In this document: positions 38,865 to 63,405 of the stretch, in pieces
Layout: each line of letters opens with the position of its first letter
Numbering within the stretch: position 1 is the first letter of the stretch
IMG/VR virus record: IMGVR_UViG_3300016665_000824
Location: 70,297 to 134,296 of that record
DNA: 64,000 bases
Direction: 5' to 3' (one strand)
Source: a virus
The notes under the pieces: generated by a model
Database searches by the model: none
What the model saw: the letters and a program-made list of their open reading frames with translations, nothing else
What the model was told of the DNA's origin: nothing
Made by a program: the position numbers and the translations under genes

Positions 38865-39090
38865 AGAAGATGCTGAAGAATGCTTAGCTAAAAATCTAAA
38901 GGTTGTAACGCGCTATGGGCTAGGCGAAATTATTTCGATCGCCAAGAAAAGCGACCCAGTACAATGGGCAGAGATAAAACAACTTGACCGCGATCGCCAG
39001 TTTGAAGTACCCAGATGTCTATACCTATCGAGCATCAGCAGATATACTGCTGTTTTGGTTGAGCAAAGTGAAGTAGAAAGTATTTTTTAA
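38857..39090 (+). CDS. hypothetical protein
   Basis: ORF 38683..39090; start at ATG 38857 overlapping previous stop; last plus-strand gene before packaging block. Confidence 0.35.
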   Translation: MTREDAEECLAKNLKVVTRYGLGEIISIAKKSDPVQWAEIKQLDRDRQFEVPRCLYLSSISRYTAVLVEQSEVESIF

Positions 39091-40715
39091 TATCCCGATC
39101 GCCACACGATATCCATCAGAGTTTCCCTACCAGCGAAAGCAATAACACAAGCGTCACTACAATTAGGCGATCGCCCCAATCTACGAATAGTTTTAGAAGC
39201 CTTATCCTCAATGCGTAACTTCGCGTTGGGGGTTTCTTCGTAGTAGACGTTACTAAAGTCCGTCATCAGATATTCTTCCTCCTCTAGTGGTGCGATCGCC
39301 GATATATCGTCATTGCCATCGGCAGCAGCAAAGAATTCACGCAGTTTCCAATACCATTGAGCCTTCCAGTTCATATATAGCTGATCGAAGTCTTGGTTGG
39401 CATCTTCTTCTACCGCATCACCAAAGTTAGCTGCCCATACTTGCGCTCCCCATCCGCGATCGAGCAAGTAAGCTAATGTACCCGAACCAACACCCGTGGC
39501 ATCTATACCCACTTTACAGTTAGGATAGACGCGCAGATATTCTTCCTCAATGATTTGGGCAATACGAATAACGTCTTTGCGATCGCCTACACAGGGGATA
39601 ACCCTCGCGATCTTAAGCACATTACCTTGAAACCCACAAATAGCATGGTCATCACTCATGGAGCCGACATCTACACCAAAACTCCAAGGTGTATTGACAT
39701 TGATAATTGTTTCCCACAGATCGGGATTGAGATCGTATCTTGCCCGTGCCGCAACAAAGTAGCTCTTGGGAAGTATAGACGCGCCACCCGATTCCGAGAA
39801 CAAGCCCTCAATACGAGTCAGCCAGAAAGGTGAGTTTTCACCCTTCTTGATACGCATCCTTTCAATCCATGCGATCGAGATAGCACCCTTGATTACATCT
39901 CTGGGTAAGTCAGCATCCCATTCGGATTGAGGTTTGATTGGCTCGTCGCGAGAGTTGGGGTCATTAGGCGATCGCTTAATCTTTGCCTCGACCTCTGGTT
40001 TAAGTCGGTGCATCCCATCAAGATGCAGGTCGTAAGCCCATTCAACATTTGGGTGCTGCCATGCACTGCATCTGATATGGCTGAGGTTGCAAGCAGTATA
40101 GAAAGGGGAGTCACATCTGGTTGGGTTGCCAATACGAAGAATCTTATTTTGTTCCCCTGTAAGACAGCTTTCTAGGGAGGTATCTACGGCAGGACTGATA
40201 CCACAGGCTTCATCTTCAATAATAAGCATTCGTTCTGAGTGGATACCCTGCGCTGCCGAATCATTATGGTCACTACTGGAAAAGCCGTATGCCTCAACCC
40301 CTTCTTCGAGGAATACCCGCAGCTCATTTCTCTTGCCGCCGAGCTTCTTCTTGTGTTTGTCGTATAGACGACGGACAACGCCCCAAAGCAACTTAGTAAC
40401 CTGTCGGTGAGTTGGTGCGGTAGAGATAACAAGCGATCGCACAGCAAATACCGCCCAGAGGACTAACCACCCACTCAAGTATGTCTTGCCTAAACCGTGG
40501 CAGGCGGCAACATTGGTAACACGCTTGTTCTTGACCGATTCAAGAATGGTGATCTGTTGTCCCGTGATAACAATATCGGGTTCAAGGTATCGAATAAATC
40601 CTTCGGGGTCGTCGGCAAATCGGGTTAAGTCTTCACCGATCGCCACATCCCCCTCATTACCTGATACCAGCTTAATCTGCGTATTACAGCTCGTCTTCAG
40701 TCTCGCAAAGCCCAC
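39087..40715 (-). CDS. terminase large subunit
   Basis: Walker A ACHGLGKT, Walker B LIIEDEA, C-terminal RNase-H-like nuclease segment (FGVDVGSMSDD ... VGIDATGVGSG). Confidence 0.7.
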   Translation of the reverse strand: MGFARLKTSCNTQIKLVSGNEGDVAIGEDLTRFADDPEGFIRYLEPDIVITGQQITILESVKNKRVTNVAACHGLGKTYLSGWLVLWAVFAVRSLVISTAPTHRQVTKLLWGVVRRLYDKHKKKLGGKRNELRVFLEEGVEAYGFSSSDHNDSAAQGIHSERMLIIEDEACGISPAVDTSLESCLTGEQNKILRIGNPTRCDSPFYTACNLSHIRCSAWQHPNVEWAYDLHLDGMHRLKPEVEAKIKRSPNDPNSRDEPIKPQSEWDADLPRDVIKGAISIAWIERMRIKKGENSPFWLTRIEGLFSESGGASILPKSYFVAARARYDLNPDLWETIINVNTPWSFGVDVGSMSDDHAICGFQGNVLKIARVIPCVGDRKDVIRIAQIIEEEYLRVYPNCKVGIDATGVGSGTLAYLLDRGWGAQVWAANFGDAVEEDANQDFDQLYMNWKAQWYWKLREFFAAADGNDDISAIAPLEEEEYLMTDFSNVYYEETPNAKLRIEDKASKTIRRLGRSPNCSDACVIAFAGRETLMDIVWRSGY

Positions 40716-41551: not shown

Positions 41552-41829
41552 AACACCACATTGTCAAAAGAAAATGGGACTAACTCCCCGTTGTCGAAGC
41601 GAATCCACACCCTCTCACAAGCGATCGCCACTGTCTCTACGGTTGCCTCAAGCCCATACTTGCCATTGCCAGGGTATAGGCATACTACGCGATCGCCTTC
41701 TTCGGGAGTATATCTTCCGAGGCGTTTTAGAACTGTCTTTAGCTTGTGTATCATATTTTGCTTATTACTAACGGCAAGCCTGTTAGGAGATCGCATATTA
41801 ACGACAAACTTCAAGCTATAGACTTTCAA
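41530..41829 (-). CDS. hypothetical protein
   Basis: 99-aa ORF. Confidence 0.35.
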   Translation of the reverse strand: MKVYSLKFVVNMRSPNRLAVSNKQNMIHKLKTVLKRLGRYTPEEGDRVVCLYPGNGKYGLEATVETVAIACERVWIRFDNGELVPFSFDNVVLCDQQNQ

Positions 41830-42169
41830 AAGTTACAGCTTGATTAGCAAACATCCTGATCTGCTGAATCAACATCATTTTGTTTTCAGGGTTCGATTCT
41901 GCTTTGAGTTGATCATGCAGATTTAAAATCCACTCAGTAACCTTGACTGTGGATTCTTTTGCGGGGCTATCAAACAACCCTATGATTTGTGCGATCGCCT
42001 CCTTAGAGATTTCGTCCCACCCCATAGAGTCAATACTGCTAGCCAAAACAAAACTCAGCCTATTAACCGCTTCGTGTTTAGCTTTTCTATCCTCGGTTGT
42101 GGGCGGATGATATTTAAACCAATCACTCAACGGGATACCTAGATATAGTGCTTCCATAATTCTCCTCAA
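41816..42169 (-). CDS. hypothetical protein
   Basis: 117-aa ORF; first gene after the 0.65-kb ORF-free region. Confidence 0.4.
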   Translation of the reverse strand: MRRIMEALYLGIPLSDWFKYHPPTTEDRKAKHEAVNRLSFVLASSIDSMGWDEISKEAIAQIIGLFDSPAKESTVKVTEWILNLHDQLKAESNPENKMMLIQQIRMFANQAVTFESL

Positions 42170-43375: not shown

Positions 43376-44035
43376 CTAGCCTCCGTAATAGTCAGCACAT
43401 AAATACTCAAGCGATCGCCCTATTTTAACCGAGTAATTCTCACCCTCGATACTAGCTTCCTGCATCACCTTTTCTAAAGCCGCTCTCACGATCTCCACAG
43501 CGTCCGTAGGAACACTAAAGATCATTCGAGTGAATTCATCACTGGCTTCGGGAGGAGCTTTCTCCTTGGCGGCTTCGAGCATCTTGGCGAGACTTTCCTT
43601 TGTGTGAGGTGTGGGGAGATAAGCGCGATCGCCTAATTTCTTTTCAACCCTTTTGAGGGAAACACTTAGCTTAACTGGATCTTCTTCGCCGTGAGCCTTG
43701 GATGCGGAGGTGTATAACTCGTATTCTTCATCCTGTAAGCCCGTAATGACATTGCAATAGTAGTATTCCAGCCCCTCTAAGTATCTATGTTCGCCATTTA
43801 CAATCTCGTACTCACCCTCAATATGCGGATGGGGGCGAACAACAAGCGGCTCAATTTGGGTAAACATCTTTAAGCTCTCCCCCAAAGCCTTTTGGTGGTG
43901 AGGCTGCAAAACGTTTGAGTTCCAAGAGTTCGGATGTATCTTTGAGGTCTCAATCTTTACATTCCACTCTTTCTGGATTCGTTGCGCGATCGGTAGCGAA
44001 TAATCAATCTTCTTCGTCATCTTCATCCTCTTCAA
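43376..44035 (-). CDS. ParB-like nuclease-domain protein
   Basis: N-terminal segment (IHPNSW ... QIEPLVVRP ... YEIVNGEHRY) resembles the ParB N-terminal domain. Confidence 0.4.
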   Translation of the reverse strand: MKRMKMTKKIDYSLPIAQRIQKEWNVKIETSKIHPNSWNSNVLQPHHQKALGESLKMFTQIEPLVVRPHPHIEGEYEIVNGEHRYLEGLEYYYCNVITGLQDEEYELYTSASKAHGEEDPVKLSVSLKRVEKKLGDRAYLPTPHTKESLAKMLEAAKEKAPPEASDEFTRMIFSVPTDAVEIVRAALEKVMQEASIEGENYSVKIGRSLEYLCADYYGG

Positions 44036-45185
44036 ATTTCTTGGGCATAATTACCGATGTCAGGAATGATTCCTGCTCTACTCCGTCGCAAGGGCTAACC
44101 ATTACTAGCGGTCGAGTTCCCTCGTATACCTCCAGCTTAATGTGTTTTGATTTTGTGGTATCCAAAATATGCTGCAAGTATTTTATGTTGAACCGAGCAG
44201 CAAATCCTGACACGCCAACATCGCATGGCAGTGATTCTTCCACCCTGCCAACACCCGCAACTTCAGCAACAAGTATCAACTCATCACCCTTGATAGTGAT
44301 GTCAACCAAGTAGCTAGTAATCTCACCCTCACACAACGAAGCAACGGTCTTCAAGCTGGTAATCAGCTCTTTGCGATCGCACTTTACCGACCCAGACATC
44401 TCTTTGAGCCGTACGTTAACGAGACTCGATCGTACTGGTGGAAATGGTTGAGCAATTAGTGGTGAGATGATGGTTAGCGCGTGGCTATAAAACCAAATAT
44501 GGTTACTGGCTAAACGCACTTCAGTCTCTGCTTGGGTGATGTGCAGAACCTCTTTGAGCGATCGCGCAGGTATTGTCGCATTAATCAGCTTTTCACTCAA
44601 TTCGGGGTGGACAAATCTGATACAAGATCCTCGACAGCCATCGGTTGCTGTGAAGGATAGGAATCTCGTCGGGTCATCTTCACCATCAATGATTTCGTCG
44701 TACTCCGCTAGGTTCACACCCGTAAGTGCAGGCTTAGTTTCGTCGTTAGATACGAGCTTTAAGGTAGCCACAATGCCGTCCCGCAGTATATCTGTGGCGA
44801 TCGCAAAGGTGTCAGCATCAGTAATCTTGGGGGTGCTTGGGTATGAGTCGGCGCTGATAGTTGGTAGTGAGATTTTACTCTTACCACACTTAATAGTGGC
44901 AATACCTTCGGATACCTTGATTAAAACCTCTTCACCGTTGAGGGACTTTACCGCGTCGGAGAATCGCTTGGCATTGAGCGCGATCGCGCCCTCTTCTTTG
45001 ATACTATCGGAATCCTCTCTGCGGATTAGCCAAAGCTTTAGGTCGGTAGCTGTGATGGTGAAGAGATCGTTCTTCGCTTCGAGTCGAAAGTTTGTTAAGA
45101 TTTCCTGCGGTGGAGACTTAGAAACAGCTTCCTTTACTGCGTCCACCATCGATTTCAACGTTTTGAGAGGGAGTGTTAGTTGCAT
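44004..45185 (-). CDS. dnaN: DNA polymerase III beta sliding clamp
   Basis: 393 aa; N-terminus (LKTLKSMVDAV ... FTITATDLKLWL) matches DnaN pattern and length. Confidence 0.75.
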   Translation of the reverse strand: MQLTLPLKTLKSMVDAVKEAVSKSPPQEILTNFRLEAKNDLFTITATDLKLWLIRREDSDSIKEEGAIALNAKRFSDAVKSLNGEEVLIKVSEGIATIKCGKSKISLPTISADSYPSTPKITDADTFAIATDILRDGIVATLKLVSNDETKPALTGVNLAEYDEIIDGEDDPTRFLSFTATDGCRGSCIRFVHPELSEKLINATIPARSLKEVLHITQAETEVRLASNHIWFYSHALTIISPLIAQPFPPVRSSLVNVRLKEMSGSVKCDRKELITSLKTVASLCEGEITSYLVDITIKGDELILVAEVAGVGRVEESLPCDVGVSGFAARFNIKYLQHILDTTKSKHIKLEVYEGTRPLVMVSPCDGVEQESFLTSVIMPKKFEEDEDDEED

Positions 45186-45479: not shown

Positions 45480-45983
45480 CTATTCAAAAACCGAGTGGCA
45501 AACGAGACATACATAAGCAGCGATCGCGTAGACATACTTATACTCCGATGGGAGGAATGTCGGTTGCAATAGGGCATATCCAAAGACTCCTGTGAAAACA
45601 AAGGCGATCGCTGCCACCATCTTTTTACCGATCAGTTTTGCCCATAGGTTGGCAAGACCTAAAACCAGCAACCAGAAAAGTAGTGACGGACGGAGCAACA
45701 GCCAGTTAACGAAGAATCTAACCGCATGGATGTCATGCCTGCGATGGAATAATCTAGAAACAGGGTGGACTATGCCGTGGTGAACGAAGTTACTTAAGGG
45801 TATGCAGTCTCGAAGTAGTAACTCGCGAGAAAGATTAGCGTAGGTCATGTGATGGGTCTGATTAGATTTTAGGAACGGGAATACAGCACACCTGTCGAAC
45901 ATAATGCTACGAAATTTTCGAGACTTCTGCTGCCAATCTTTTGAATGAATGTAGGCTTGATAATCTACTCTTACTTTTGTCAT
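45480..45983 (-). CDS. integral membrane protein with His-box-like motifs
   Basis: Hydrophobic C-terminal half; HHGIVH and HRRHDIH motifs; last gene of coupled operon. Confidence 0.4.
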   Translation of the reverse strand: MTKVRVDYQAYIHSKDWQQKSRKFRSIMFDRCAVFPFLKSNQTHHMTYANLSRELLLRDCIPLSNFVHHGIVHPVSRLFHRRHDIHAVRFFVNWLLLRPSLLFWLLVLGLANLWAKLIGKKMVAAIAFVFTGVFGYALLQPTFLPSEYKYVYAIAAYVCLVCHSVFE

Positions 45984-47128
45984 TGTTTTTTGAATCTCTT
46001 ATAAACAGTTTCTGTATACTCAGCAATACTGGGGTAGGAGTTTCCACCATAGGTTTGGGGACGAGTGTTGTTAAATAGAGCTGGATCTCCCGAATACCAA
46101 ATCGAAGCAGCCTTCCGAATTTGTTCTTCTTCGGATTTCGATGTTGGGGCGACCTGTTTTAGAGCTTCCTCTAACTTGCAGTCAATGATCTTGACCTGCT
46201 TAGTCTTGTCTTTAAGGAATTCCTGTTCGGTTAATGGAGAGCCGAGGCATTGAGTACTCCACGACTTGATGTTTTCAGGCATTATCTGCCCATAACCCAA
46301 TGCGCCGCTATCTGCATTGATAGCTTTATGGTCGTGGTTTGATTCTTGACCAGCGATCGCATTACGAAGTCTCTCAACGACAGGTTTGGCTGGAGCCTTG
46401 GTCGGCTCTGTCCCCTGCAATAACCACGAGACAATACCTCTTGGAGGATTAATCAACTCGCCCTTGAACTTAACTCCGACGTGCAGGTGTGGACCGCTAG
46501 ATGCTCCCGAATTTCCAGATTTGGCAATCATCGATCCGACGGGATGCCTACCTGAATAGCACTCGTTTAAGTGGAATAACTGGATTTCATATTCGGGTAG
46601 CAGAGGGCTGGTTACATAAGCTGCCACCCCTTCTGGCGGATTGAATGGGCTGAACGGGCAGGCAACATCTACAAAACCGTCATGAAATGCACTTTTAGAG
46701 CCTAATTTCCCGATCGCGTAAACAGGAGTTCCAACTGGAGTTGCGATGTCAACGCCTTTGTGGTCTTCGCTACATGATGGGCATGGTTTTTCTCTCTTAC
46801 CAAAGCCAGAAGTGACTTCATAGCCAAGTATTTTGTCCCCAACTTTAAGTGGCTCGTTAAAGTCCTCATCGGGCTTGAAGTTAACTTCAAGAGATGTCTT
46901 TGCGACTGTTGGTAGTCCCAGAAACCTGTAAGCCCACTTAACCGAATCGTTTGCTGGCTTGTAGAGGATCGCGATCGCAATTAACGCGATCGCGAATAAT
47001 TTACCGTTTCTCCAGCGAGTCTCCTTTGCTTCGAGCTTCTCGTGGTAAACGATCTGAAACTCTTTGCTGGTTTCCTCCAGTTTCGGTTTTGGTGGTAGAA
47101 GGGGTCTCTTCTGGTGGCTTAAAACCAT
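45980..47128 (-). CDS. membrane-anchored bifunctional peptidoglycan hydrolase (M23 peptidase + lytic transglycosylase)
   Basis: N-terminal TM segment (LFAIALIAIAILY); M23 motifs HKGVDIATPVGTPVYA and SGPHLHVGV; SLT-like segment GQESNHD ... GALGYGQIMPEN. Confidence 0.7.
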   Translation of the reverse strand: MVLSHQKRPLLPPKPKLEETSKEFQIVYHEKLEAKETRWRNGKLFAIALIAIAILYKPANDSVKWAYRFLGLPTVAKTSLEVNFKPDEDFNEPLKVGDKILGYEVTSGFGKREKPCPSCSEDHKGVDIATPVGTPVYAIGKLGSKSAFHDGFVDVACPFSPFNPPEGVAAYVTSPLLPEYEIQLFHLNECYSGRHPVGSMIAKSGNSGASSGPHLHVGVKFKGELINPPRGIVSWLLQGTEPTKAPAKPVVERLRNAIAGQESNHDHKAINADSGALGYGQIMPENIKSWSTQCLGSPLTEQEFLKDKTKQVKIIDCKLEEALKQVAPTSKSEEEQIRKAASIWYSGDPALFNNTRPQTYGGNSYPSIAEYTETVYKRFKKQ

Positions 47129-47567
47129 ATCTAATAGGCTCGTCTAGACCTTGATCGAGTTGCACGTAAAGTTGTTTGGTTGAGTTGGTAAGGAATTTAA
47201 GATAAGTAACCGATCCTTTCTTGCCTTCACAAAAATAGTTGGGGAATTCTTTGAGAACCTGTCTTGTTGTTTTACCTTCAAGCTTGAGGGCTTGACTCAT
47301 TGGTACAGGTATTGTCTGAGATGAAGTGGTAAGGCAATCTTCGGTGTTGCCATCGAGTACTTTTGCTAGCTGTGTCTCCGCGATCGGGCGGAGATCTACG
47401 AAGGCGAGATAGCCTTCTTCTGGAAGATTTAAAGAAATAGCGATAAGCGCACCTAGCAGCAATGCGTTTATCGCTATGTCACGTTTTTTCATTGGTTTAG
47501 CGACGCTCAGCCCTTGCTTGACGAGGAGAAAATGCCACATCGTCATTTTTTTTAGTGTTCTCGGCAA
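47001..47567 (-). CDS. hypothetical exported protein
   Basis: Signal/TM-like N-terminus; 3' part overlaps hydrolase gene in another frame (boundary uncertain). Confidence 0.35.
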   Translation of the reverse strand: MPRTLKKMTMWHFLLVKQGLSVAKPMKKRDIAINALLLGALIAISLNLPEEGYLAFVDLRPIAETQLAKVLDGNTEDCLTTSSQTIPVPMSQALKLEGKTTRQVLKEFPNYFCEGKKGSVTYLKFLTNSTKQLYVQLDQGLDEPIRYGFKPPEETPSTTKTETGGNQQRVSDRLPREARSKGDSLEKR

Positions 47568-48015
47568 CGATGTCGTTAACCTTTTTTTCTGCGATCACAC
47601 CAGTAAACTCTTTAACCGCAGAAACTCCGTTAAAAGCCCATGCGTTAGGCATTCCACCAGCTTCCGAGGTAGTGAGATAACGAGGCGTGGGATTGAAAAA
47701 ACTAAGAAGAGCCATAATGCCCATAGGAATAACCACGATCGCTGTGCATCCGTATAGAAGCGCCCATCGTTTGTTGCTCAAAACAGAGTCTATAAATGCT
47801 CTAGCGGAAACGATGATTGCCTGATGCTGATCTTTGTCGATCAAGTAAACTCTTTTACCTGATTCAAGTCCATCAACAAGACCATCACCGTTGATATCGC
47901 CACTAAAAGCCGTCTTACCTGCTTTCCCGTAAACAACAATATCGCATTCTGCTCGTTTCATTGTCATTGGTTTTCCTCCTCCACCGCCCTGTGGCGGCAT
48001 ATTTCCTGCGTTCAT
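47497..48015 (-). CDS. hypothetical membrane protein
   Basis: Gly-rich N-terminus and one TM segment (WALLYGCTAIVVIPMGIMALL). Confidence 0.4.
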   Translation of the reverse strand: MNAGNMPPQGGGGGKPMTMKRAECDIVVYGKAGKTAFSGDINGDGLVDGLESGKRVYLIDKDQHQAIIVSARAFIDSVLSNKRWALLYGCTAIVVIPMGIMALLSFFNPTPRYLTTSEAGGMPNAWAFNGVSAVKEFTGVIAEKKVNDIVAENTKKNDDVAFSPRQARAERR

Positions 48016-48018
48016 GTT

Positions 48019-49362
48019 TTAAGCCGTTCTTGGAAACAGCACTAGGTTGTCTTTACCGATCGCGAGGATTCTATCAAGAGCTTCCTCCACCGATTCTTCA
48101 GTGACTTCCGACTTCTCGGAATCAAACCTGAAGCCGTCCAGATGCTTGAGATCTGGCATTAATGCAATCTTGGGTATACCCATTGTGGTTAGCAATACTG
48201 GGCGATCGCCTTGCTTCTTAGCCATTGCGATCGCATCTCCAAGCATCCCCGCAAGAGATAATCTTTGCTGCTTATTAGGGAATAGTTTTGCATCGGCAAG
48301 AGCTGCTTCAATGGGCCTATAGCCAACATCATTCTTTTCACCCATGCGACCTAGCGCAAGAACTGAGAAGCAGCCTCGCACTGGGTCGCTGAAGCCAATT
48401 TGAGTACAAAGGTGAGTTTGCGCGACAAGAATAAGGCGAACACACATCTCTCTTCCCATAGCAACTATCTGATTGAGCATTCCAAAAAATTCTGCCTCTC
48501 TTTTTGAGGAAGCAATCATGTCTTGTAGTACCCACCACTCGTCAAGGATTAGATATTGAGGGGCAAAGACTGGGCGCTTCCCGCCTTCTCGTAATATCTT
48601 TTGTACTGCGCGAATCCTATTCTTCATGATCTTAAAGGCGCGGCTAATCTGCTCGGAAGCAGCATCAAGCTGCTCGTCTTGCGTGTCTTGATCTAAGTAG
48701 GTGACGATGCCATCTTCGCTTTGAAGCCCTAGCCAGTCCGTTGTCTTTGGATCGACAATACCGAATTTAGAAGCGGGGTTGATCTTCTTTATTCGCTGGA
48801 TAAGCGCCTTTAGCAAGGTAGACTTACCCGCGCCAGACTTGGTGGCAATCAGTACATGAAGATCTGTGTGAGCCACCTCGCCGATAATATCTCCAGTAAA
48901 CACTCCTTTCGAGTACTCGGTAACAGCTATAGGCTCTTCGTCCGTATAAGGCTCGTCATCAAACTGAGGAGGTCTAACTGCTGCTACTGGTTGAGGGCGA
49001 GGCGCGGATGTGCGCTGAACATTGGTATTGCGAATAATTACTGGGGCAGCAACTTGCTGTTGAGCGTGAGGCAGAGCTACTGGAGTCTCCTCGCCTTTGG
49101 GTTGTTCATCTTCAAGGTTGCTTGCCAAGCCGACACCTGACGCGATCGCCATGCCAAGAAAAGCCAAAGTAGCAATAGGATTATTGTAGGAACTGGGCTG
49201 AAGTACAGCCTGTTGCCCATGATCGTTAACACTTGAGTCTACCCTCCTGTATTCGTCTGCGGACTTAAATAGGACATCTCTCGGTAATACCGACCATCCA
49301 GCAGCTCCTAGCCATGCTGCACAGCTAATGCCTAATAGTAGGTTTACTGTTGACTTCTTCAT
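48019..49362 (-). CDS. membrane-anchored P-loop ATPase, FtsK/SpoIIIE/VirD4-like
   Basis: N-terminal TM segments, Pro/Gln-rich linker, Walker A TKSGAGKST, Walker B YLILDEWW. Confidence 0.55.
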   Translation of the reverse strand: MKKSTVNLLLGISCAAWLGAAGWSVLPRDVLFKSADEYRRVDSSVNDHGQQAVLQPSSYNNPIATLAFLGMAIASGVGLASNLEDEQPKGEETPVALPHAQQQVAAPVIIRNTNVQRTSAPRPQPVAAVRPPQFDDEPYTDEEPIAVTEYSKGVFTGDIIGEVAHTDLHVLIATKSGAGKSTLLKALIQRIKKINPASKFGIVDPKTTDWLGLQSEDGIVTYLDQDTQDEQLDAASEQISRAFKIMKNRIRAVQKILREGGKRPVFAPQYLILDEWWVLQDMIASSKREAEFFGMLNQIVAMGREMCVRLILVAQTHLCTQIGFSDPVRGCFSVLALGRMGEKNDVGYRPIEAALADAKLFPNKQQRLSLAGMLGDAIAMAKKQGDRPVLLTTMGIPKIALMPDLKHLDGFRFDSEKSEVTEESVEEALDRILAIGKDNLVLFPRTA

Positions 49363-50093
49363 AGCTTCTTGTTCAGTTTTCCAGCTTGGGCATTGGGGCT
49401 GGACTCGATTAGGTCTAGCCTTATTCTTTGAAGCTCGTCAAGATTGCTTCTTACTACTTCTGGAGCGGTTTCAACCAGTTCAACTCTTCCCTCGCGAGCC
49501 GCCTCAATAGCTAAAAGATTTGCGTTTGCGAGAATCATCTCCTTGGCATCTCTAGCGCGAGAAGCAGCTTGCTGGCGAGCTAGCCAAGCGTCTCGTTTTC
49601 TGTTTAGATCGCAGTCAATCCCTTTCTCGGATCGAAGGCAGTCTTTATCGTTTTTATCCTTGACCGCTTTGTTTGCGGCTTGGAGATAATCATTCGCTAG
49701 AATTTTTATTGCAGCGTCCGTGTCTTTGTCTAAGGCTGCTTTAGCACCAGCTTTCGCCTCGCTAAAACTAATCTTTTTGCCTTCTAAAGATTTTTGGAGC
49801 AACTCCTCGGATCTTTGGTCAAAGGATTTAGGAACGAAAGGATCTATTCTTTCTGCGGGTTTGGGTTGGCTGTTGACCACTGCCGCGATCGCAATAACAG
49901 TAGAGACAACGCCTAGCCCGATATATATTAAGTTTTTTGGAGTAGCCCAAGCGAGGTTCGACTGAGCGGGTGCTGTAGCTGCGGGTGTCGTGGGAGCAAG
50001 TCGGCTGGGCTGTCTTTCTGTGATTCGAGGGGTAGCGATTGGAGTATCCGCTACTTCCTCAAACTCATCTTGCATTGCGGCAGTGTCAAGCAT
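49359..50093 (-). CDS. membrane-anchored coiled-coil protein
   Basis: Pro-rich N-terminus, TM segment (IYIGLGVVSTVIAIAAVV), Lys/Ala-rich coiled coil. Confidence 0.4.
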   Translation of the reverse strand: MLDTAAMQDEFEEVADTPIATPRITERQPSRLAPTTPAATAPAQSNLAWATPKNLIYIGLGVVSTVIAIAAVVNSQPKPAERIDPFVPKSFDQRSEELLQKSLEGKKISFSEAKAGAKAALDKDTDAAIKILANDYLQAANKAVKDKNDKDCLRSEKGIDCDLNRKRDAWLARQQAASRARDAKEMILANANLLAIEAAREGRVELVETAPEVVRSNLDELQRIRLDLIESSPNAQAGKLNKKL

Positions 50094-50095
50094 AT

Positions 50096-50458
50096 CTACC
50101 TCCCCGCCGAAGGAAGAAATTGACTGATTGGGCGGTTCGTAGGAAGAAAAGGATTGTCTTCCGAGTTGTTCACGCCAGTAAAAAAATCACCGAGAACTTC
50201 TCCGCTATAGGCGATCGCGTCAGGGAGTTTTTGAATTACGTTGAGCGCAATCTGTTCTCCAACCGCAAAGGCGATCGTTCCTGCGATTTCATTGCCGACT
50301 TGAGTTCCGACTGTGCCAACCTGAGTGCGAACCTGCATTTGTACCTGTTCTGGGGTTAGAAGGGCGGACTGGGGAGCAGTAGCCCTAACATCTTCTACAG
50401 GAGTTACATCTAGCAAGGCTTGCTCTTCTTCGGTTAAATGAGCGTTATCTTTGGACAT
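50096..50458 (-). CDS. hypothetical protein
   Basis: 120-aa ORF, coupled. Confidence 0.35.
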   Translation of the reverse strand: MSKDNAHLTEEEQALLDVTPVEDVRATAPQSALLTPEQVQMQVRTQVGTVGTQVGNEIAGTIAFAVGEQIALNVIQKLPDAIAYSGEVLGDFFTGVNNSEDNPFLPTNRPISQFLPSAGR

Positions 50459-50720
50459 CTTCGTATGTACTCTCTAAAAAATCTGAACATTTTTGGTAAT
50501 TAGACAGGGCAGCTTTTTTTGTAAAACCTCTTGCTTTGAGGCTGGTCTCTTTTCCGATTGCGGCTATCTGTCTTGCAGTTTTAAGACCGCAAGGAGATTT
50601 GATTCTTACTCCTCTCTTCTTTAAAAGGCGGTATCCCCAATCCTTAAAAGTCCCAAAAGGTATGCCAATCTGCTCTGCCCACTCGTGAAGGTGGCGTTCT
50701 ACTTGGCTTGTTTGCGTCAT
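50445..50720 (-). CDS. hypothetical basic protein
   Basis: 91-aa ORF, coupled. Confidence 0.35.
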   Translation of the reverse strand: MTQTSQVERHLHEWAEQIGIPFGTFKDWGYRLLKKRGVRIKSPCGLKTARQIAAIGKETSLKARGFTKKAALSNYQKCSDFLESTYEDVQR

Positions 50721-50908
50721 AGGTCTTCAAAGTTTTCTGGAACAAGGTCGAACGAATCAAAGTTTGCGAGCTGAGATTCTACCTGTTCTAGTTCCAAGCT
50801 AAGATTCTGGGCATCTTCTCCTTGACTCTGTAACTCAGAGATAGACCTCTTAAGTTGATACTTTCTATTAAATAATGATCTAATCAACTCGTCTTGGGCG
50901 TTTTGCAT
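50717..50908 (-). CDS. hypothetical coiled-coil protein
   Basis: 63-aa ORF, first gene of coupled operon. Confidence 0.3.
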   Translation of the reverse strand: MQNAQDELIRSLFNRKYQLKRSISELQSQGEDAQNLSLELEQVESQLANFDSFDLVPENFEDL

Positions 50909-50930
50909 AAGCTTTATGGATAAATATTCG

Positions 50931-50986
50931 TCTGATTAGACTGTCCGATCACCTGTCCAATGGACATCTGATTAGACTGTCCGATC
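50931..50986. promoter_or_regulatory. two 20-bp direct repeats (TCTGATTAGACTGTCCGATC), candidate operator
   Basis: Copies at 50931-50950 and 50967-50986 in the divergent region between the operon start (50908) and RHH gene (51089). Confidence 0.45.
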
Positions 50987-51088
50987 AGAATAAAATTAGT
51001 GTACTTAAGTTATTCGCACTTGTCAACAAAATAGTAGAAACTCGTTTTGAATGCGCTAATATTGGGCAATTCAACCTATTAAGACCTT

Positions 51089-51352
51089 ATGAGCGTCACT
51101 CAGACTGCGCGTTTCCCCGATGATTTACATGCTGCATTGAAAGAACACTGCGATCGCACAGGAAATAGCGCCAACGCAGAAATAATCCTCGCAGTGCGAA
51201 AACATCTGGGTATGCCAACAGTCGAAGATCGTCTCGATAGTCTTGAAGAGGGATTGAGAAAATGTATTGATAGGTTGAATAGGCTAGAGGCTAGCGCGAT
51301 CGCCACTCAGCAATCTTCCGACACCGATATTCGGTCCAGTGCGGATGATTAG
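51089..51352 (+). CDS. ribbon-helix-helix (Arc/MetJ/CopG-type) transcriptional regulator
   Basis: N-terminal TARFPDDLHAALKEHCDRTGNSANAEIILAVRKHL fits beta-strand/helix/helix RHH pattern. Confidence 0.45.
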   Translation: MSVTQTARFPDDLHAALKEHCDRTGNSANAEIILAVRKHLGMPTVEDRLDSLEEGLRKCIDRLNRLEASAIATQQSSDTDIRSSADD

Positions 51353-51593
51353 TCGGCGTGTACCAATTTTCATATTTGTAAGTACCCTTTGACCTGTTGC
51401 AAGGCGTACAAGCTGGTACGGTATTTGCAAAGTCGTCGCTACCCGAATCATGGCGCGGAATGATATGGTCTAGTCCGTTTGCCTCGTTACCGCAGTAGGC
51501 ACATTTATAGTCAAACTCTTGGAACGTATAATCTCTAATCTTTTGCAAAACATCTTTTTTCCTAATGCAGTCAGATAGGGATATATAGAGCAT
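51291..51593 (-). CDS. HNH endonuclease
   Basis: CAYCG ... LDHIIP ... ACTPCNRSKG HNH motif; start set at ATG 51593 (ORF track 51638). Confidence 0.7.
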   Translation of the reverse strand: MLYISLSDCIRKKDVLQKIRDYTFQEFDYKCAYCGNEANGLDHIIPRHDSGSDDFANTVPACTPCNRSKGTYKYENWYTPTNHPHWTEYRCRKIAEWRSR

Positions 51594-51709
51594 ATTCAAT
51601 ACCCATGTTTTGACAATGCTGCCACAAAATTGAAACAAGTGCGGCGATCGCTACAGATTTGGCGAACCAAATATCGCTATACTGACACAAGAAGATTTTT
51701 AAAAACTAA

Positions 51710-52249: not shown

Positions 52250-52633
52250 TTATACCTGAGTGGCGAAGTATTTAGAGGCGATCGCGATAAGCCTTAATTG
52301 TTCGCTGGGATAAATCCCTGAAGGTCCAACTGCCTCATATAGTCTCTTTAGCACCTCAGCTTTGCCGTACTCGGAAATCAGTAAAGCCCATCCAAGTACA
52401 TGTAGCTGGAACAAAAGCTCTTTCTGGAGCCGTTCCTTATGAGCTGTACTCTTACCCTTAAACGTCGGATGTCGAACCTCTCGTACTCGCAGCTTGTTTT
52501 TCGGGAAGGAAATGTAGAGACTTGAGGTTAGGTATTCATCTATCAGAACGAGAAGTTCTTGGCGATCTTTTTGTAAGAGTTCTGCTTGCATAGACATACT
52601 CAAAAACCTTTGTATTTCTGCCAAGAAGTCCAA
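52250..52633 (-). CDS. hypothetical protein
   Basis: 127-aa ORF. Confidence 0.4.
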   Translation of the reverse strand: MDFLAEIQRFLSMSMQAELLQKDRQELLVLIDEYLTSSLYISFPKNKLRVREVRHPTFKGKSTAHKERLQKELLFQLHVLGWALLISEYGKAEVLKRLYEAVGPSGIYPSEQLRLIAIASKYFATQV

Positions 52634-53190
52634 AGGTTTTTTACTTCAATACCCTTTTTCTTGGCATATTTCACACAGTTAGCCGTACCACCTCTCGACC
52701 CGTCCCATAGTGCGAGCATTCTGTTAGCCCGATCGCACATCCACTCATTCCTAATCTGCATCGCCGCAGCCGAGTATGGCACATCAGGGCAATGCACGGC
52801 GATCGCCTTGTCGCAGATATACTGCCATTGGTCTTGCTGCGACTGACTCCACTTAAATGAGTGGTTTAAGCAAGGTACTGCGGCGACGAGAGGTATTTCT
52901 AATTCGATCGCTGCTAATGCGATCGCGGTGTCCCATCCCAAAGCCATGCCAGAAATAACAATTACAGGTCTTTCTTGCATCAAGGCATTCTTAGCAAGGG
53001 TAGTAAGTCTGGGCAGGGTTAAGGATTCGTATTGACTCCACGTACTTTGCAGCTTCTGGGGGCGATGTCCTGTGCCAGCAACGACTAATTGCCCGTCGGT
53101 AAGATCGAGTTTAATGTCGGAGGAGTCTGATTCGCTACCTATAGGAATATTAACTTGGAGCCAGTGATCGGTGATTGATATTGTTTTCAT
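52600..53190 (-). CDS. SLOG-superfamily protein (DUF1273/YpsA- or DprA-like Rossmann fold)
   Basis: VVAGTGHRP, VIVISGMALGWDTAIALAA and GSRGGTANCV motifs. Confidence 0.4.
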   Translation of the reverse strand: MKTISITDHWLQVNIPIGSESDSSDIKLDLTDGQLVVAGTGHRPQKLQSTWSQYESLTLPRLTTLAKNALMQERPVIVISGMALGWDTAIALAAIELEIPLVAAVPCLNHSFKWSQSQQDQWQYICDKAIAVHCPDVPYSAAAMQIRNEWMCDRANRMLALWDGSRGGTANCVKYAKKKGIEVKNLWTSWQKYKGF

Positions 53191-59575: not shown

Positions 59576-59823
59576 GGCAGTATCCTGTCCAGCAGGTAGA
59601 TAATTAAGTGCATAGCCTTAACATTCCTGTTCGCGCAGTATATCTTCAGGCGAGTATGCAGTGAAGCAGGTAGATCAACCGTGATCCGCACAGTCCGCTC
59701 CTTCTCCCCTTCCACGGGCAACCCATCCAAAATATTTCCCGCAGTATTGTTTGTGTTCAGATCGGAATTAGCCTTGATAAAATTCTGCTCAATTGTTTCG
59801 GTAAGAGGTATACGCTTAGACAC
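59572..59823 (-). CDS. ParG-like ribbon-helix-helix protein (candidate centromere-binding partner of ParA)
   Basis: C-terminal RITVDLPASLHTRLKIYCANRNVKAMHLIIYLLDRIL is RHH-like; immediately downstream of and overlapping parA. Confidence 0.45.
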   Translation of the reverse strand: MSKRIPLTETIEQNFIKANSDLNTNNTAGNILDGLPVEGEKERTVRITVDLPASLHTRLKIYCANRNVKAMHLIIYLLDRILP

Positions 59824-60448
59824 AGCTCAGCACCTCCTCAAATAAAGCTTCGTACTCTGCCGCCGAATCTTGGGCGGCTTTGCTGTTTAATCCCCAGACA
59901 GTTGTGCGTTGACCAGACGAGTCGGCGATCGCCTGTTTCTGGTGAATCACTGTTTCTAACAATGGGATAACCGATATGGCTTTTAAGGTGGCGATCGCCT
60001 CTTCCTTGAGCATGGTTCGAGGGACTGCGCGGTTTAAAAAGAATGCGGCTCTGGGTAAACCCCCTCGCACTGACTGAGCTTGCAGTATTAGCTTTACTGA
60101 GTCCATTGCCGAGTTGAGGTCTAACCTTGTTGGTTGACATGGAACAATTGCTAGATCAGTTCTTAGTAGGATTGCGCGAGTTACCTCCGACAAGTTGGCG
60201 GGACCATCGAGGATTAAGTAGTCGCTCTTTAGGGCTGGTATTTTGTCGAGAATGCTGTCGGAATCGGACATGATTGTATATGCGATCGGAGTGGCGATCG
60301 TGCCTGCCCATTTACTTGAAGATTGCTGACCATCGGCATCGACCAGGATTACGTCTTTATCGTGGCGGCGCAGATACTCTGCCAAGTGGACTGAAGTGGT
60401 GGACTTGCCACAACCACCTTTTTGATTGACCAACGAGATTACAGTCAT
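59816..60448 (-). CDS. parA: partition ATPase ParA (small, type Ib-like)
   Basis: Deviant Walker A NQKGGCGKST, 210 aa. Confidence 0.8.
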   Translation of the reverse strand: MTVISLVNQKGGCGKSTTSVHLAEYLRRHDKDVILVDADGQQSSSKWAGTIATPIAYTIMSDSDSILDKIPALKSDYLILDGPANLSEVTRAILLRTDLAIVPCQPTRLDLNSAMDSVKLILQAQSVRGGLPRAAFFLNRAVPRTMLKEEAIATLKAISVIPLLETVIHQKQAIADSSGQRTTVWGLNSKAAQDSAAEYEALFEEVLSCV

Positions 60449-60597
60449 AGTTATTCGTGGGAGTATTACCTCCGCGCATTAAACCATGATCGTTGCGATA
60501 CTGCAATCAGTAAGTACTGAAGGTGTCCGCGCAAACGTTATTTGTGATGCTGGAAGCTTTACTGGGAAAGGGTTTTAGAATGTCCTTGCAAATAAGA

Positions 60598-60798
60598 TTA
60601 GTTGACTGACCTTATTTTAAAATGCTTGCAATTCACTGGGCAGCGATCGCCTAACCAAGATGCTTCGGTATGGACGTGGAGATCGCTAGTTTTCCAGATT
60701 TGTGGGTTATAGCAATGGTCGGCGCAATCGGGGCTGTACGACTCCCACTTCGGATTAACCCCGTTCCAGTAACAGTCGAGTCGGGTTTCGGTGTGCAT
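60598..60798 (-). CDS. hypothetical Cys-rich protein
   Basis: 66-aa ORF. Confidence 0.3.
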   Translation of the reverse strand: MHTETRLDCYWNGVNPKWESYSPDCADHCYNPQIWKTSDLHVHTEASWLGDRCPVNCKHFKIRSVN

Positions 60799-61050: not shown

Positions 61051-61250
61051 AAATATTAAAAAGCGATCGCCAATAGGCTATGTGATTTTTACGATTCTAA
61101 ACTTGATATCTCGATATGTCCGACGCAAAGATGACAGCTCCACCTTGGCTTCTTTCTTGTCGTACTGATACTTATTTTGTCTAACCCATACGTTAGGCTG
61201 CTCAAACTTTGTTACTAACTTTTCAATTGCGTACATCGTTGTAACTGGTT

Positions 61251-61440
61251 TAAAAAGCGATCGCTATCCTGAAGAGAGGTGGATAGGCGATCGCAAAATG
61301 TACATCATGAAAAATCCTCTCCCCACAATCTTAACTTGGATTCGCATTAAAAAGCGATCGCTATCCTGAAGAGAGGTGGACAGGCGATCGCTAAAATGAT
61401 TATCTAACATGACCTCTCCCCACAATTTTAACTTGATTTT
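61251..61440. repeat. two tandem ~97-bp repeats, each with a pair of HIP1 sites
   Basis: taaaaagcgatcgctatcctgaagagaggtgga(t/c)aggcgatcgc ... cctctccccacaat(c/t)ttaacttg at 61251 and 61348; ORF-free region upstream of the par operon. Confidence 0.6.
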
Positions 61441-61594
61441 GTGGCAAAAAAATACCGACGTCCTGTGGAGTGGTGGACGACGGGCTATGTAATCTCGATG
61501 GTCTGGAAATATTCTACGCGGTTTTGTGGCGCTTTTATTATCGAATCCCGCATTTAATCGATAATAACGAGAAAATTATTCCTAGATATTATCA

Positions 61595-62068: not shown

Positions 62069-62892
62069 ATACGTTTTAAATCTCAAGAAAGCTCTCATTT
62101 GTTAACAGTAACTGGAAGATTTCTTTGTAAAAGACCTAATAAAAAAGACCTAGCTCGATCCGTGATCCAGAGATCCAAAATCTCCACGTCCAAAACAGTT
62201 AACTTTTTGAGTGATTCAGGGGGTTGCTATTGGGAATTTTCGCGCGTGTGCATAGAAATAGCAAATTTGACCGTCAAAAAAATAAGCTTTATAGTGTCAT
62301 CACTTAGCTGTGTGACAGGCATCTAAGTAAGGGCTTTACAGTTCTCTAGTCACTTATATATGGCTAGCAAGCGTAAACAAAGGAATAGTAAAGACAGCTA
62401 ACAAGCTGTTTGTAACTAGGGTAGAAATTCGGTTAAGTAGCTACGAAGAAACATAGCTACTTTGAACTTAAGAAAGAGTTTTTTGTTTGCGGGTTTTAAT
62501 GCCTCACTTGCAAGGTAGATAGGATGAACAAAGAGATTAAACAGTGAATTAACACGGTATAGGCTGTAACTAGTAGATAAAGCACTCTAAGCTCAAACAA
62601 CGATCGCACTAAGTTAAACGGTTACTTAGTAAAGCGATCGCACTCATTCCCATTGCTTACGAGATAGGCAAAAAGTGAGGGAATAAAGCGATCGGCGATC
62701 GGGTAGTTCGATCCCGTCATGGGTAAGGACTACAGCACTTAGGAATAGCTCTAAAGTAGCTAGGGTTAAGTGAGTTAGTAGCTATTTGCGAGTAATAGCT
62801 TAAGCGTAGGTACTAATCACTTCATACGCAAATTAGATCAAAGAGATAAACCGTTAAAACTATTCACACTATATTTTTTGAGGGTTAAAACC

Positions 62893-63405
62893 ATGTCTAA
62901 TCTTAATACTGAGTTTTCCGAATTGATTGCGATCGCTGATTTTCACGGTGTAAGCATTGATGAAGCAGTTGCGCTAAAAACTGCTAGCGAAAGCGCTAGT
63001 AAAAAGCTTACTCGTAATCTTTCTACAGCGATCGCTGATCGTCTTGTTGCGACAATCGAAAATGATTGGAGCGCTACTAACTCTAATTATCTTGATGTGC
63101 TAACTCGTAGAATGCAACGCGCTAACCGTAAAGAACGCTTAGCCGATCCTGTTGCAAAACTTGAAGCACCCGTTGAAGTAGTAGTTGAAGCACCCGTTGA
63201 GACTGAAAAAGTTACCGTTGAAGCACCCGTTGAAGTAGTAGTTGAAGCACCCGTTGAGACAGCTATCGACAGATCACCAACGCAGGCACGCCGCAAACGT
63301 GGCGCTACAGTTGCAACGGTTGAAGCACTCGCACCCGTTGAGACTGAAAAAGTTACCGTTGAAGCACCCGTTGCGAGAAAAACTAGATCACGTAGAGCTA
63401 AGTAA
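62893..63405 (+). CDS. protein with tandem EAPVE(V/T) peptide repeats
   Basis: ORF 62878..63405; start at ATG 62893; nucleotide tandem repeats at about 63166-63380 encode repeated EAPVEVVVEAPVETEKVTV units. Confidence 0.45.
   Translation: MSNLNTEFSELIAIADFHGVSIDEAVALKTASESASKKLTRNLSTAIADRLVATIENDWSATNSNYLDVLTRRMQRANRKERLADPVAKLEAPVEVVVEAPVETEKVTVEAPVEVVVEAPVETAIDRSPTQARRKRGATVATVEALAPVETEKVTVEAPVARKTRSRRAK

Follow-up and report, generated by a model that had tools for sequence, protein, structure and literature searches.

The DNA analysed here, which we call the window, is a stretch of 64,000 nucleotides of the IMG/VR virus record IMGVR_UViG_3300016665_000824 and corresponds, in reverse complement, to positions 50483-114482 of a metagenomic contig of 134,398 bp. 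Within it nine minus-strand genes, named g1 to g9 in reading order, lead away from a divergently oriented gene for a ribbon-helix-helix (RHH) regulator (Table 1). They encode a membrane-anchored ATPase of the FtsK clade (g5), a membrane-anchored peptidoglycan hydrolase (g8), three bitopic membrane proteins (g4, g6 and g7) and the accessory proteins g1 to g3 and g9. An earlier interpretation made from the letters alone, referred to below as the sequence-only reading, had proposed a nine-gene, translationally coupled membrane operon for DNA translocation, and all nine open reading frames (ORFs) are indeed present. As that reading had also noted, the element possesses a terminase-type packaging enzyme of its own; both a terminase large subunit (TerL) and a portal are found, and the module is therefore a second, non-packaging system.

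The genes are closely packed. Seven of the eight junctions are short, with overlaps of 4 nt at g1/g2, 14 nt at g2/g3, 4 nt at g4/g5 (where the g4 stop codon overlaps the ATPase start) and 4 nt at g8/g9, and gaps of 2 nt at g3/g4, 3 nt at g5/g6 and 4 nt at g6/g7 if g7 begins at Met26 (47492), where its homologues start. The proposed chain of overlapping or abutting stop and start codons thus holds for these seven and gives way at g7/g8 to a 128-nt out-of-frame overlap (47001-47128). Tight coupling of this kind is usual in phage genomes and has no significance by itself. The array does not end at g9: with gaps of 25-35 nt it runs on through a 77-aa ORF, the sliding clamp and a ParB-like gene as far as TerL. 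The order g4-g8 is unchanged in five phage lineages, namely the contig of the window itself, L005-L007, L008/L009, L013 and L014/L015, among which ATPase identity falls as low as 34%, and the clamp and the ParB-like gene always follow. The gene g9 is absent from three of the five lineages and g1-g3 are swapped for other small genes. What recurs is therefore g4-g8 alone, and the functional unit is better described as five core genes, joined by variable accessories and a divergent regulator, than as the nine-gene set first proposed, which is not conserved. Five diverged lineages keep the start codon of g8 (ATG), the stop codon of g7 and the two open frames of the g7/g8 overlap, which suggests either genuine dual coding or a tight translational interlock of the hydrolase with a possible regulator. 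Identity to L014/L015 is uneven along the operon, at 89-92% for g8 and the clamp, 65% for g5 and 39-47% for g4 and g6, a mosaic that indicates recombination between lineages inside the operon.

The ATPase g5 has transmembrane (TM) helices at residues 8-26 and 63-81, as judged by hydropathy, followed by a disordered linker of about 70 aa and a motor domain at 150-405. The Walker A and Walker B motifs on which it was first recognized, TKSGAGKST (GAGKST) and YLILDEWW (LILDEW), are present and conserved, and the TM anchor that had been proposed consists of two helices. An arginine motif, GRE(L/M)(G/C)V-x-LILV-x-Q, completes the set. Pfam gives weak generic P-loop matches only, and no T4SS-DNA_transf or TraG-type domain was matched by Pfam in g5 at E <= 0.1. 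A profile built from 20 sequences, searched against the PDB, finds EccC first (4.4e-8), with FtsK and TcpA next, in an alignment that takes in both Walker motifs and the arginine motif characteristic of FtsK-clade motors (GR-x-x-G/V-hLhLhSQ). The AlphaFold (AF2) model is confident for residues 150-405, with a predicted local distance difference test (pLDDT) score of about 85 for the motor domain, and its best Foldseek matches in the PDB are the FtsK motor (1e-7), EccC (1e-6) and TcpA of pCW3 (5e-6); TrwB is not among the top 50 fold matches. The motor, of about 250 aa, leaves no space for an inserted all-alpha domain of the VirD4/TrwB type. Of the folds that had been considered for it (FtsK/HerA, VirD4/TcpA, PRD1 P9), profile and Foldseek searches thus agree on the FtsK clade.

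Affinities within that clade were gauged by blastp and by bit scores of the g5-family profile. By blastp g5 is 31% identical to Orf21 of Tn916 over 190 aa (E 2e-13), and the two proteins are of similar length (447 and 461 aa), both with two N-terminal TM helices; many Enterococcus plasmid matches and two 'phage' matches fall in the same g5 range, all at 31% identity, and the one 'phage' match that was inspected, in Streptococcus phage IPP61, is the Orf21 of a Tn916-like element. The profile scores highest with cyanobacterial plasmid proteins from Leptolyngbya (86.9 bits) and Nostoc (61-66 bits), then with Tn916 Orf21 (45.5 bits) and an Oscillatoria plasmid protein (43.3 bits), and far lower with FtsK (17.7 bits), TcpA (16.0 bits), Tra of pIJ101 (11.5 bits) and TrwB (5.1 bits). 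Of the VirB4 proteins, TrwK and TcpF receive no score from it and Orf16 receives -1.5 bits. On these comparisons the closest characterized relative of g5 is the Tn916 Orf21 coupling protein, and on sequence evidence g5 is far from VirD4/TrwB and from VirB4. As a control we examined Orf21, a genuine DNA coupling protein, and found that it too matches the EccC/EssC NCBIfam models best; the EccC matches of g5 are therefore uninformative as to whether its substrate is DNA or protein. An exhaustive hidden Markov model (HMM) scan of 1.84 billion cluster representatives recovered 241 members of the g5 family at E <= 1e-10 and 25 at E <= 1e-30, and the ten representatives that we looked up were unnamed or called 'hypothetical protein'.

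Some features of g5 outside the motor deserve mention in their own right. The acidic C-terminal tail (ELDRILAIGK-DN-L/V-V-P/L-F) and the N-terminal TM region are kept even in the P0032/P0034 sub-lineage (L008/L009), whose P-loop core has diverged strongly or been replaced. At its very end the tail (NLVLF or NVVPF) bears a loose likeness to motifs that bind the beta clamp, and in all phage relatives examined the module is closely followed by the gene for a sliding clamp.

The second recognizable enzyme of the core, g8, matches Peptidase_M23 in Pfam (4.1e-9) and has HKGVD and HLH motifs (HxxxD and HxH, by eye). Its lytic transglycosylase (SLT) domain, at 4.5e-4, narrowly misses the Pfam cut-off, but motifs of the type ES, GYGQIM and WYSG can be recognized by eye; these matches and motifs correspond to the bifunctional hydrolase of the sequence-only reading. 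The membrane segments that had been assigned to these proteins were found for g4 (one), g5 (two), g6 (one) and g7 (one, N-terminal), and for g8 only as a short hydrophobic stretch of 13 residues around 43-56. The three bitopic proteins are far more restricted in their distribution. No match to g4 was found by a PDB profile search; the gene is present in all five phage lineages, and a database-wide search returned 12 clusters only, all from the phage lineage. Likewise g6 occurs in five of five lineages, with a DYDGDGKAD motif in the N-terminal domain of relatives, and has no PDB or family match (PDB profile, Pfam, PHROG, NCBIfam). The periplasmic domain of g7 is predicted with confidence, has no Foldseek match and is weakly BLIP/BamE-like. 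The database-wide search for g7 gave 15 clusters only, all from the phage lineage, and its profile found no match among PDB sequences. A VirB8-like fold, which had been suggested as something to look for among these proteins, is rejected for g7 on its predicted structure, which is not NTF2-like.

Pfam, PHROG and NCBIfam searches returned nothing significant for g1-g4, g6, g7 and g9. The accessory genes differ in reach: g1 was found only in the contig of the window, g2 has homologues only in L008/L009 and L014, and g3 has a weak 27% match in L005-L007 only. The gene g9 occurs only in the window lineage and in L005/L007, with a 67.7% tblastn match in L006 where no gene is called, and is absent from L008/L009, L013 and L014/L015. 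The polytopic character claimed for g9 is borne out by two or three TM segments, and its 'His boxes' look like a degenerate HNH-type pattern, a reading for which Pfam gave no supporting match.

The divergent RHH regulator is real by Pfam, its likeness to TraY being weak, and a small divergent gene also occupies this position in relatives. The intergenic region of 180 bp between it and g1 contains the best sigma-70-like promoter match, which is a consensus match only, such sites being no commoner in the region than in shuffled sequence. Between the -10 element and the g1 ATG, in an operator-like position, lie the direct repeats already noticed in the sequence-only reading, two perfect copies of 21 rather than 20 bp. 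Relatives have other direct repeats in the same place (two of 23 nt in L005, three of 11 nt in L014), which fits with lineage-specific repressor-operator pairs, and the RHH protein is probably the repressor of the module promoter. At its 3' end the RHH gene overlaps by 62 nt a convergent ORF for an HNH endonuclease.

The pairing of ATPase and hydrolase is not confined to phages. Relatives of the ATPase lie on plasmids of Nostoc (18 records), Leptolyngbya, Tolypothrix and Oscillatoria, and in metagenome-assembled genome (MAG) contigs of Microcystaceae, Crocosphaera and Cyanothece. On Leptolyngbya boryana p1 and Oscillatoria acuminata pOSCIL6304.02 a TM-anchored M23 hydrolase is encoded one or two small genes after the ATPase, and local profile searches of these plasmids identify the ATPase at 4e-26 and 6e-13 and the hydrolase at 8e-21 and 2e-24. 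The domain beside M23 varies, being DUF2927 in Leptolyngbya, GH108 in Oscillatoria and SLT in the phage. The Oscillatoria ATPase has two clear N-terminal hydrophobic segments (16-32 and 63-79) and that of Leptolyngbya one scored segment (52-75). Upstream of the plasmid ATPases stand proteins with the architecture of g4, acidic and Pro-rich with a TM helix at 55-73 (Oscillatoria) or 52-74 (Leptolyngbya); the Oscillatoria protein is encoded just upstream of the ATPase, its stop codon overlapping the ATPase start, and in Leptolyngbya three small genes intervene. After the ATPases follows a protein with a mid-chain TM helix, such as the 185-aa protein in the g6 position of the Leptolyngbya plasmid, or small N-terminally anchored proteins. 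Comparison of g4 and g6 with these architecture-matched proteins by hhalign was not significant, and we therefore claim shared architecture, not homology. Two more distant, metagenomic relatives also have wall enzymes nearby: in P0070 the ATPase is followed by NlpC/P60, beta-lactamase-fold, M23 and SLT genes, and P0080 reads [249 aa][ATPase][174][94][M23][121][270]. Linkage to a hydrolase is thus seen in five of eight independent contexts (the phage lineage, Leptolyngbya p1, pOSCIL6304.02, P0070 and P0080). The pair is not phage-specific, and its presence on cyanobacterial plasmids points to plasmid-type transfer and against virion, entry or lysis roles.

One of these carriers, the plasmid pOSCIL6304.02, is complete at 50.7 kb; it encodes a MOBP relaxase, ParM, ParA and a DUF5906 replicase, and is without annotated VirB4 or phage genes. 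MOB-suite types several plasmids with ATPase relatives as relaxase carriers. The same typing in PLSDB labels the self-transmissible pCW3 'mobilizable' and pIJ101 'non-mobilizable' (L025, L026), and such labels on module-carrying cyanobacterial plasmids therefore say little about autonomous non-canonical transfer. Several annotations around the relatives were discarded: the name 'type IV secretory system conjugative DNA transfer family protein' given to Nostoc relatives by the Prokaryotic Genome Annotation Pipeline is weak and was not reproduced with Pfam or NCBIfam; the putative relaxase next to a NikA-like gene in L024 is a large protein with DUF3854 and no relaxase support; and a GH19-type lysozyme in L011 was dropped for want of Pfam support.

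Table 1. Features of the module and its surroundings, in window coordinates.
Feature	Positions	Strand	Remarks
TerL (terminase large subunit)	39087-40715	-	phrog_2 8e-28
117-aa ORF	41816-42169	-	weak Acb2/Tad1 hairpin match (0.005)
ParB_N-like gene	43376-44035	-	downstream of clamp
DNA polymerase III beta clamp	44004-45185	-	downstream of g9
g9	45480-45983	-	accessory; 167 aa; Cys/His-rich N-terminal part, then two or three TM helices
g8	45980-47128	-	core; membrane-anchored bifunctional peptidoglycan hydrolase; basic N-terminal tail, M23 endopeptidase, SLT lytic transglycosylase
g7	47001-47492 (ORF 47001-47567)	-	core; N-terminal signal-anchor, small and highly conserved periplasmic alpha/beta domain 45-128, disordered tail
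g6	47497-48015	-	core; bitopic; TM 86-104, conserved N-terminal domain
g5	48019-49362	-	core; membrane-anchored FtsK-clade P-loop ATPase, 447 aa
g5 acidic C-terminal tail	48019-48150	-	
g4	49359-50093	-	core; bitopic; acidic Pro-rich N-terminal tail, TM 55-73, helical periplasmic part, conserved Cys pair
g3	50096-50458	-	variable accessory; 120 aa, Gly/Ala-rich amphipathic middle
g2	50445-50720	-	variable accessory; 91-aa soluble basic protein
g1	50717-50908	-	variable accessory; 63-aa soluble helical acidic protein
Two perfect 21-bp direct repeats	50931-50951, 50967-50987		TCTGATTAGACTGTCCGATCA; 36 bp apart
Best sigma-70-like promoter match, into g1	50998-51026	-	TTGACA, 17 nt, TACACT; 10/12 consensus matches
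Divergent RHH regulator	51089-51352	+	87 aa; Pfam FitA-like_RHH 1e-3, TraY 0.0097; PHROG Arc-like repressor families
HNH endonuclease ORF	51291-51638	-	PADLOC PDC-M01B/PtuB-like matches, about 1e-7
DprA-like protein gene	52600-53190	-	DNA_processg_A 1.3e-6; upstream of module
ParA-type partition ATPase	59816-60448	-	
Small RHH partner adjoining parA	roughly 60441-60692 (L019 6150-6401)		83-aa gene, faint 56B_RHH match
Repeat array near parA	61219-61478		three copies of a unit of about 66 nt, exactly 97 bp spacing, intergenic
ORF with in-frame repeats	62878-63405	+	about six copies of a 12/24-nt unit GTTGAAGCACCC..., encoding VEAPVE-type peptide repeats

The element that carries the module has the genes of a tailed phage. 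In addition to TerL, which is only 25-29% identical to the terminases of deposited phages, the window contains a portal (Phage_portal_3, 1.5e-57) and a tail-fibre protein gene, with Mu_F and tail_S genes just beyond its edge, and among replication and DNA genes it holds DnaB, DnaG, the clamp, the DprA-like protein and a C5 methylase. The ParA/RHH pair, together with portal, terminase and tail genes, makes the element look like a phage-plasmid, and no integrase was seen in the 64-kb window. The HIP1 octamer palindrome GCGATCGC is found 186 times in the 64 kb, where shuffled sequence would give 1.1 copies; its density is 2.9 per kb, evenly distributed across structural, replication and module genes, and at 1.7-3.1 per kb in all related phage loci; because it is rich in HIP1, the DNA that carries this ATPase family is taken to be cyanobacterial. 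We take the element to be a tailed phage equipped with maintenance genes of the plasmid type and, from its composition, presumably long resident in cyanobacteria. Three related viral contigs are found in IMG/VR, and megablast of 12 kb against phages and plasmids gave no match. Elsewhere in the window, the repeat array near parA, two of whose three copies contain HIP1, could consist of iterons or be a centromere or a regulatory array, and the hairpin match of the 117-aa ORF hints at an anti-defence sponge.

We tentatively propose, with a confidence that falls somewhat short of even, that the g4-g8 core is an envelope-spanning, VirB4-less, TraB/Spd-like DNA-transfer module of cyanobacterial mobile elements. 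In such a module the FtsK-fold ATPase g5, anchored in the inner membrane by its two N-terminal helices, would assemble as a ring and pump the DNA of the element outwards, and g8 would locally cut glycan strands with its SLT domain and peptide cross-links with its M23 domain, so opening a passage through the wall. The fast-evolving bitopic proteins g4, g6 and g7 would form a scaffold or gate of the periplasmic part. Since the g7 gene is interlocked with g8, g7 may hold the hydrolase in check, its BLIP/BamE-like domain restraining or positioning the enzyme, and the 21-bp repeats would serve as the operator through which the divergent RHH protein represses the operon, in the style of a kil-kor pair. 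We infer the DNA substrate, its direction of transport and the crossing of the outer membrane from these parts and their relatives. A bolder version, which we regard as possible but rather doubtful, would make this a self-sufficient FtsK-type apparatus without VirB4 or relaxase, giving the element a virion-independent second route of spread by pumping double-stranded DNA from cell to cell and amounting to an unrecognized type of conjugation common to many cyanobacterial plasmids.

A number of results weigh against the transfer module proposed here. No VirB4, VirB6, VirB8 or relaxase turned up in the window and its 20 kb of flanks, which together leave aside about 50 kb of the contig of 134 kb. 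The P-loop proteins found in the window are DnaB, TerL, g5 and ParA, and no VirB4 Pfam match was recorded in the flanks; for relaxases there was no tblastn match of the Oscillatoria MOBP relaxase in the window and no relaxase Pfam match in the flanks, other relaxase families not having been searched. What follows residue 405 in g5 is a disordered, acidic stretch of about 40 aa that includes a single short helix, and there is no winged helix-turn-helix (wHTH) or gamma DNA-recognition domain. No oriT or clt candidate was found besides the operator-like repeats, and clusters of clt-like 8-mers in the module are limited to these repeats and HIP1. No outer-membrane component is evident although cyanobacteria have two membranes, and the conserved core contains no protein with five or more TM helices. 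Outside the phage lineage g4, g6 and g7 have no detectable homologues, and HMMs of g4, g6, g7 and g8 found nothing among all ORFs of pCW3, pIJ101, R388 and the Tn916 segment. The hydrolase linkage stops at five of eight contexts because the Nostoc plasmids and L024 have no recognizable hydrolase near the ATPase. FtsK-clade motors also export proteins, as EssC and EccC do; moreover, all relatives are metagenomic or unstudied, and the functional reading is computational throughout.

Some of these absences bear on the kind of machine rather than on its existence. A VirB4-family ATPase is the signature subunit of every type IV secretion system (T4SS) described (PMC12857230), and the module is not a recognizable T4SS, since no VirB4, VirB6 or VirB8 was found in the window or the flanks covered and the fold of g7 is not NTF2-like. 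The likeness to conjugative machines put forward in the sequence-only reading accordingly holds for g5, closest to the coupling protein Orf21, and does not extend to a recognizable T4SS; without VirB4, VirB6, VirB8 or relaxase, the proposed machine would work like Streptomyces TraB/Spd, where a motor and diverse small membrane proteins pass on double-stranded DNA with no virion involved, rather than like a classical T4SS. Its other suggestion, a packaging module of membrane-containing phages of the PRD1 type, is ruled out because the phage has a portal and a terminase, and g5 is membrane-anchored.

One alternative is helper-dependent mobilization, in which g5 would act only as a coupling protein, docking DNA onto the T4SS of a co-resident conjugative plasmid, such as one of the cyanobacterial MPF_C class, with g8 as a wall-breaching accessory. 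The closeness of g5 to a genuine coupling protein suits this scheme, as do the MOB-suite typing of cyanobacterial plasmids with relatives as 'mobilizable', that is, with a relaxase and without mating-pair genes, and the existence of MPF_C systems with VirB4 in Nostocales (PMC4027160, PMC8600333). We nevertheless think it unlikely: no relaxase was found in the phage, a coupling protein alone leaves the conserved hydrolase and three bitopic proteins unexplained, and relatives also occur in Microcystaceae, Crocosphaera and Cyanothece MAGs, outside the Nostocales in which most predicted mobile cyanobacterial plasmids lie, with single cases in Chroococcales and Oscillatoriales (survey, PMC8600333). 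The FtsK fold, the position of the module among clamp, ParB-like, ParA and DnaB genes and the large size of the elements (134 kb or more) would suit a translocase of the SpoIIIE/SftA type acting at closing septa, across which copies of the element would be cleared or partitioned, the hydrolase and bitopic proteins tying it to the division site. Such a maintenance pump is made improbable by the lack in g5 of a gamma domain or an FtsK-like multi-TM domain, by relatives on small plasmids of 35-65 kb, by the pairing with a lytic wall enzyme, which suits wall breaching better than division, and by the closeness to Orf21, which points to transfer.

A minimal type-VII-like system, with the ATPase exporting g1-g3 or the hydrolase, would account for EccC/EssC being the best PDB and NCBIfam sequence matches of g5 and for the small soluble proteins encoded upstream, and type VII systems of Firmicutes also use a wall hydrolase. 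We consider it quite unlikely, as Orf21 matches EccC/EssC best as well, so that these matches do not discriminate, and as g5 has one ATPase domain against three aligned stretches in the solved EccC chain, and no FHA domain. EssC/EccC ATPases come with WXG100 substrates, and g1-g3, which are not conserved, gave no WXG100 match in Pfam. An envelope function in the phage cycle, be it lysis (with g8 as a membrane-tethered endolysin and g4 as a spanin-like protein), superinfection exclusion or genome entry, we judge to have a similarly small chance. Here one may cite the single leftward array shared with replication and terminase genes, the resemblance of the M23/SLT domains of g8 to phage lysins and the nature of g4 as a TM and coiled-coil protein with conserved cysteines. 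The ATPase-hydrolase pair, however, sits on plasmids without annotated phage structural genes, no known lysis cassette uses an ATPase, and the 42-aa cytoplasmic tail of g8 before its TM helix is unlike signal-anchor-release endolysins; we do not regard the module as a lysis cassette, because plasmids without phage genes keep the same pair. That the module is an anti-phage defence system is very improbable: g5 does match PADLOC mad8 (5.8e-10), but this match is confined to the generic P-loop core, there is no other component of this system (MADS) among g1-g9, and the gene set fits no known defence architecture.

The individual parts of the module, an FtsK-clade motor and M23/SLT hydrolases, are of known kinds. 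What is new is the way they are combined, together with the lack of VirB4, the occurrence across cyanobacteria and a tailed phage as carrier; we found no paper that describes the module, in keeping with the earlier suggestion that it is undescribed, and public annotation either calls its proteins 'hypothetical protein' or gives a coupling-protein name that lacks support. Of the core proteins, three out of five are without informative homologues. One survey predicts 88% of cyanobacterial plasmids to be immobile under the VirB4/VirD4/relaxase model (PMC8600333). A concrete candidate for the transfer machinery missing from this picture is the g5 family, which comprises about 240 clusters at 50% identity, is linked to wall hydrolases and has its nearest characterized relative in a conjugative coupling protein. 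If the proposal is correct, its presence as a core module of tailed phages would make transduction and conjugation harder to tell apart and give an element two independent routes of spread. As the culturable Oscillatoria acuminata PCC 6304 and Leptolyngbya boryana carry related ATPase and M23-hydrolase modules on plasmids, the hypothesis is directly testable.

The module can be compared with several known systems. With FtsK/SpoIIIE, the top Foldseek matches, g5 shares the motor-domain fold, but it differs in having two TM helices instead of four or five, in its short linker, in the lack of a gamma domain, in its location on mobile elements and in a low FtsK score (17.7 bits). Type VII EssC/EccC proteins likewise share the FtsK-clade P-loop domain, EccC being the best PDB sequence match, and differ in the three aligned ATPase stretches of the solved EccC chain against one in g5. 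The cyanobacterial MPF_C class, exemplified by pCC7120alpha, has in common the host phylum and a plasmid-borne transfer function, here a proposed one; it is defined around VirB4, homologues of VirB3/6/8/9/10 and a VirD4 protein (PMC4027160), which were not detected here.

Closer likeness is found with the Gram-positive MPF_FA systems of Tn916 (Orf21) and pCW3 (TcpA), where a single FtsK-fold ATPase of about 450 aa likewise follows two TM helices at the N-terminus and has both Walker motifs and an arginine motif of the RAAG type (RELG/REMC in g5). There, too, the motor is accompanied by a membrane-anchored wall hydrolase of several domains, a regular part of conjugation systems in Gram-positive bacteria (PMC12857230). 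The affinity of g5 to Orf21 (45.5 bits) exceeds that to other FtsK/HerA clades by profile bit scores. These systems also comprise VirB4 (Orf16/TcpF), VirB6 (Orf15/TcpH), VirB8 (Orf13/TcpC) and a MOBT/MOBM relaxase, none of which is found near g5, and the module differs further in its two-membrane host, its tailed-phage carrier and its unrelated accessory proteins. The general plan of the module, in contrast, is closer to Streptomyces TraB/Spd, which transfers double-stranded DNA without a relaxase by means of an FtsK-like motor, with three to seven diverse spd genes linked by overlapping stop and start codons, wall interactions and a divergent repressor (PMC4447253). Here g5 has a weak affinity to Tra of pIJ101 (11.5 bits) and lacks the C-terminal wHTH for recognition of the 8-bp clt, the module is without clt repeats, and its HMMs found no homology to other pIJ101 ORFs including spdA, spdB and kilB; the regulator is RHH rather than GntR, the hydrolase is an enzymatic M23/SLT protein and the host is cyanobacterial. 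In its gene layout the module nevertheless resembles pIJ101 and pSVH1, with an FtsK-like motor, neither VirB4 nor relaxase found, and an operon of small, diverse, translationally coupled membrane proteins opposite a divergent gene for a probable repressor.

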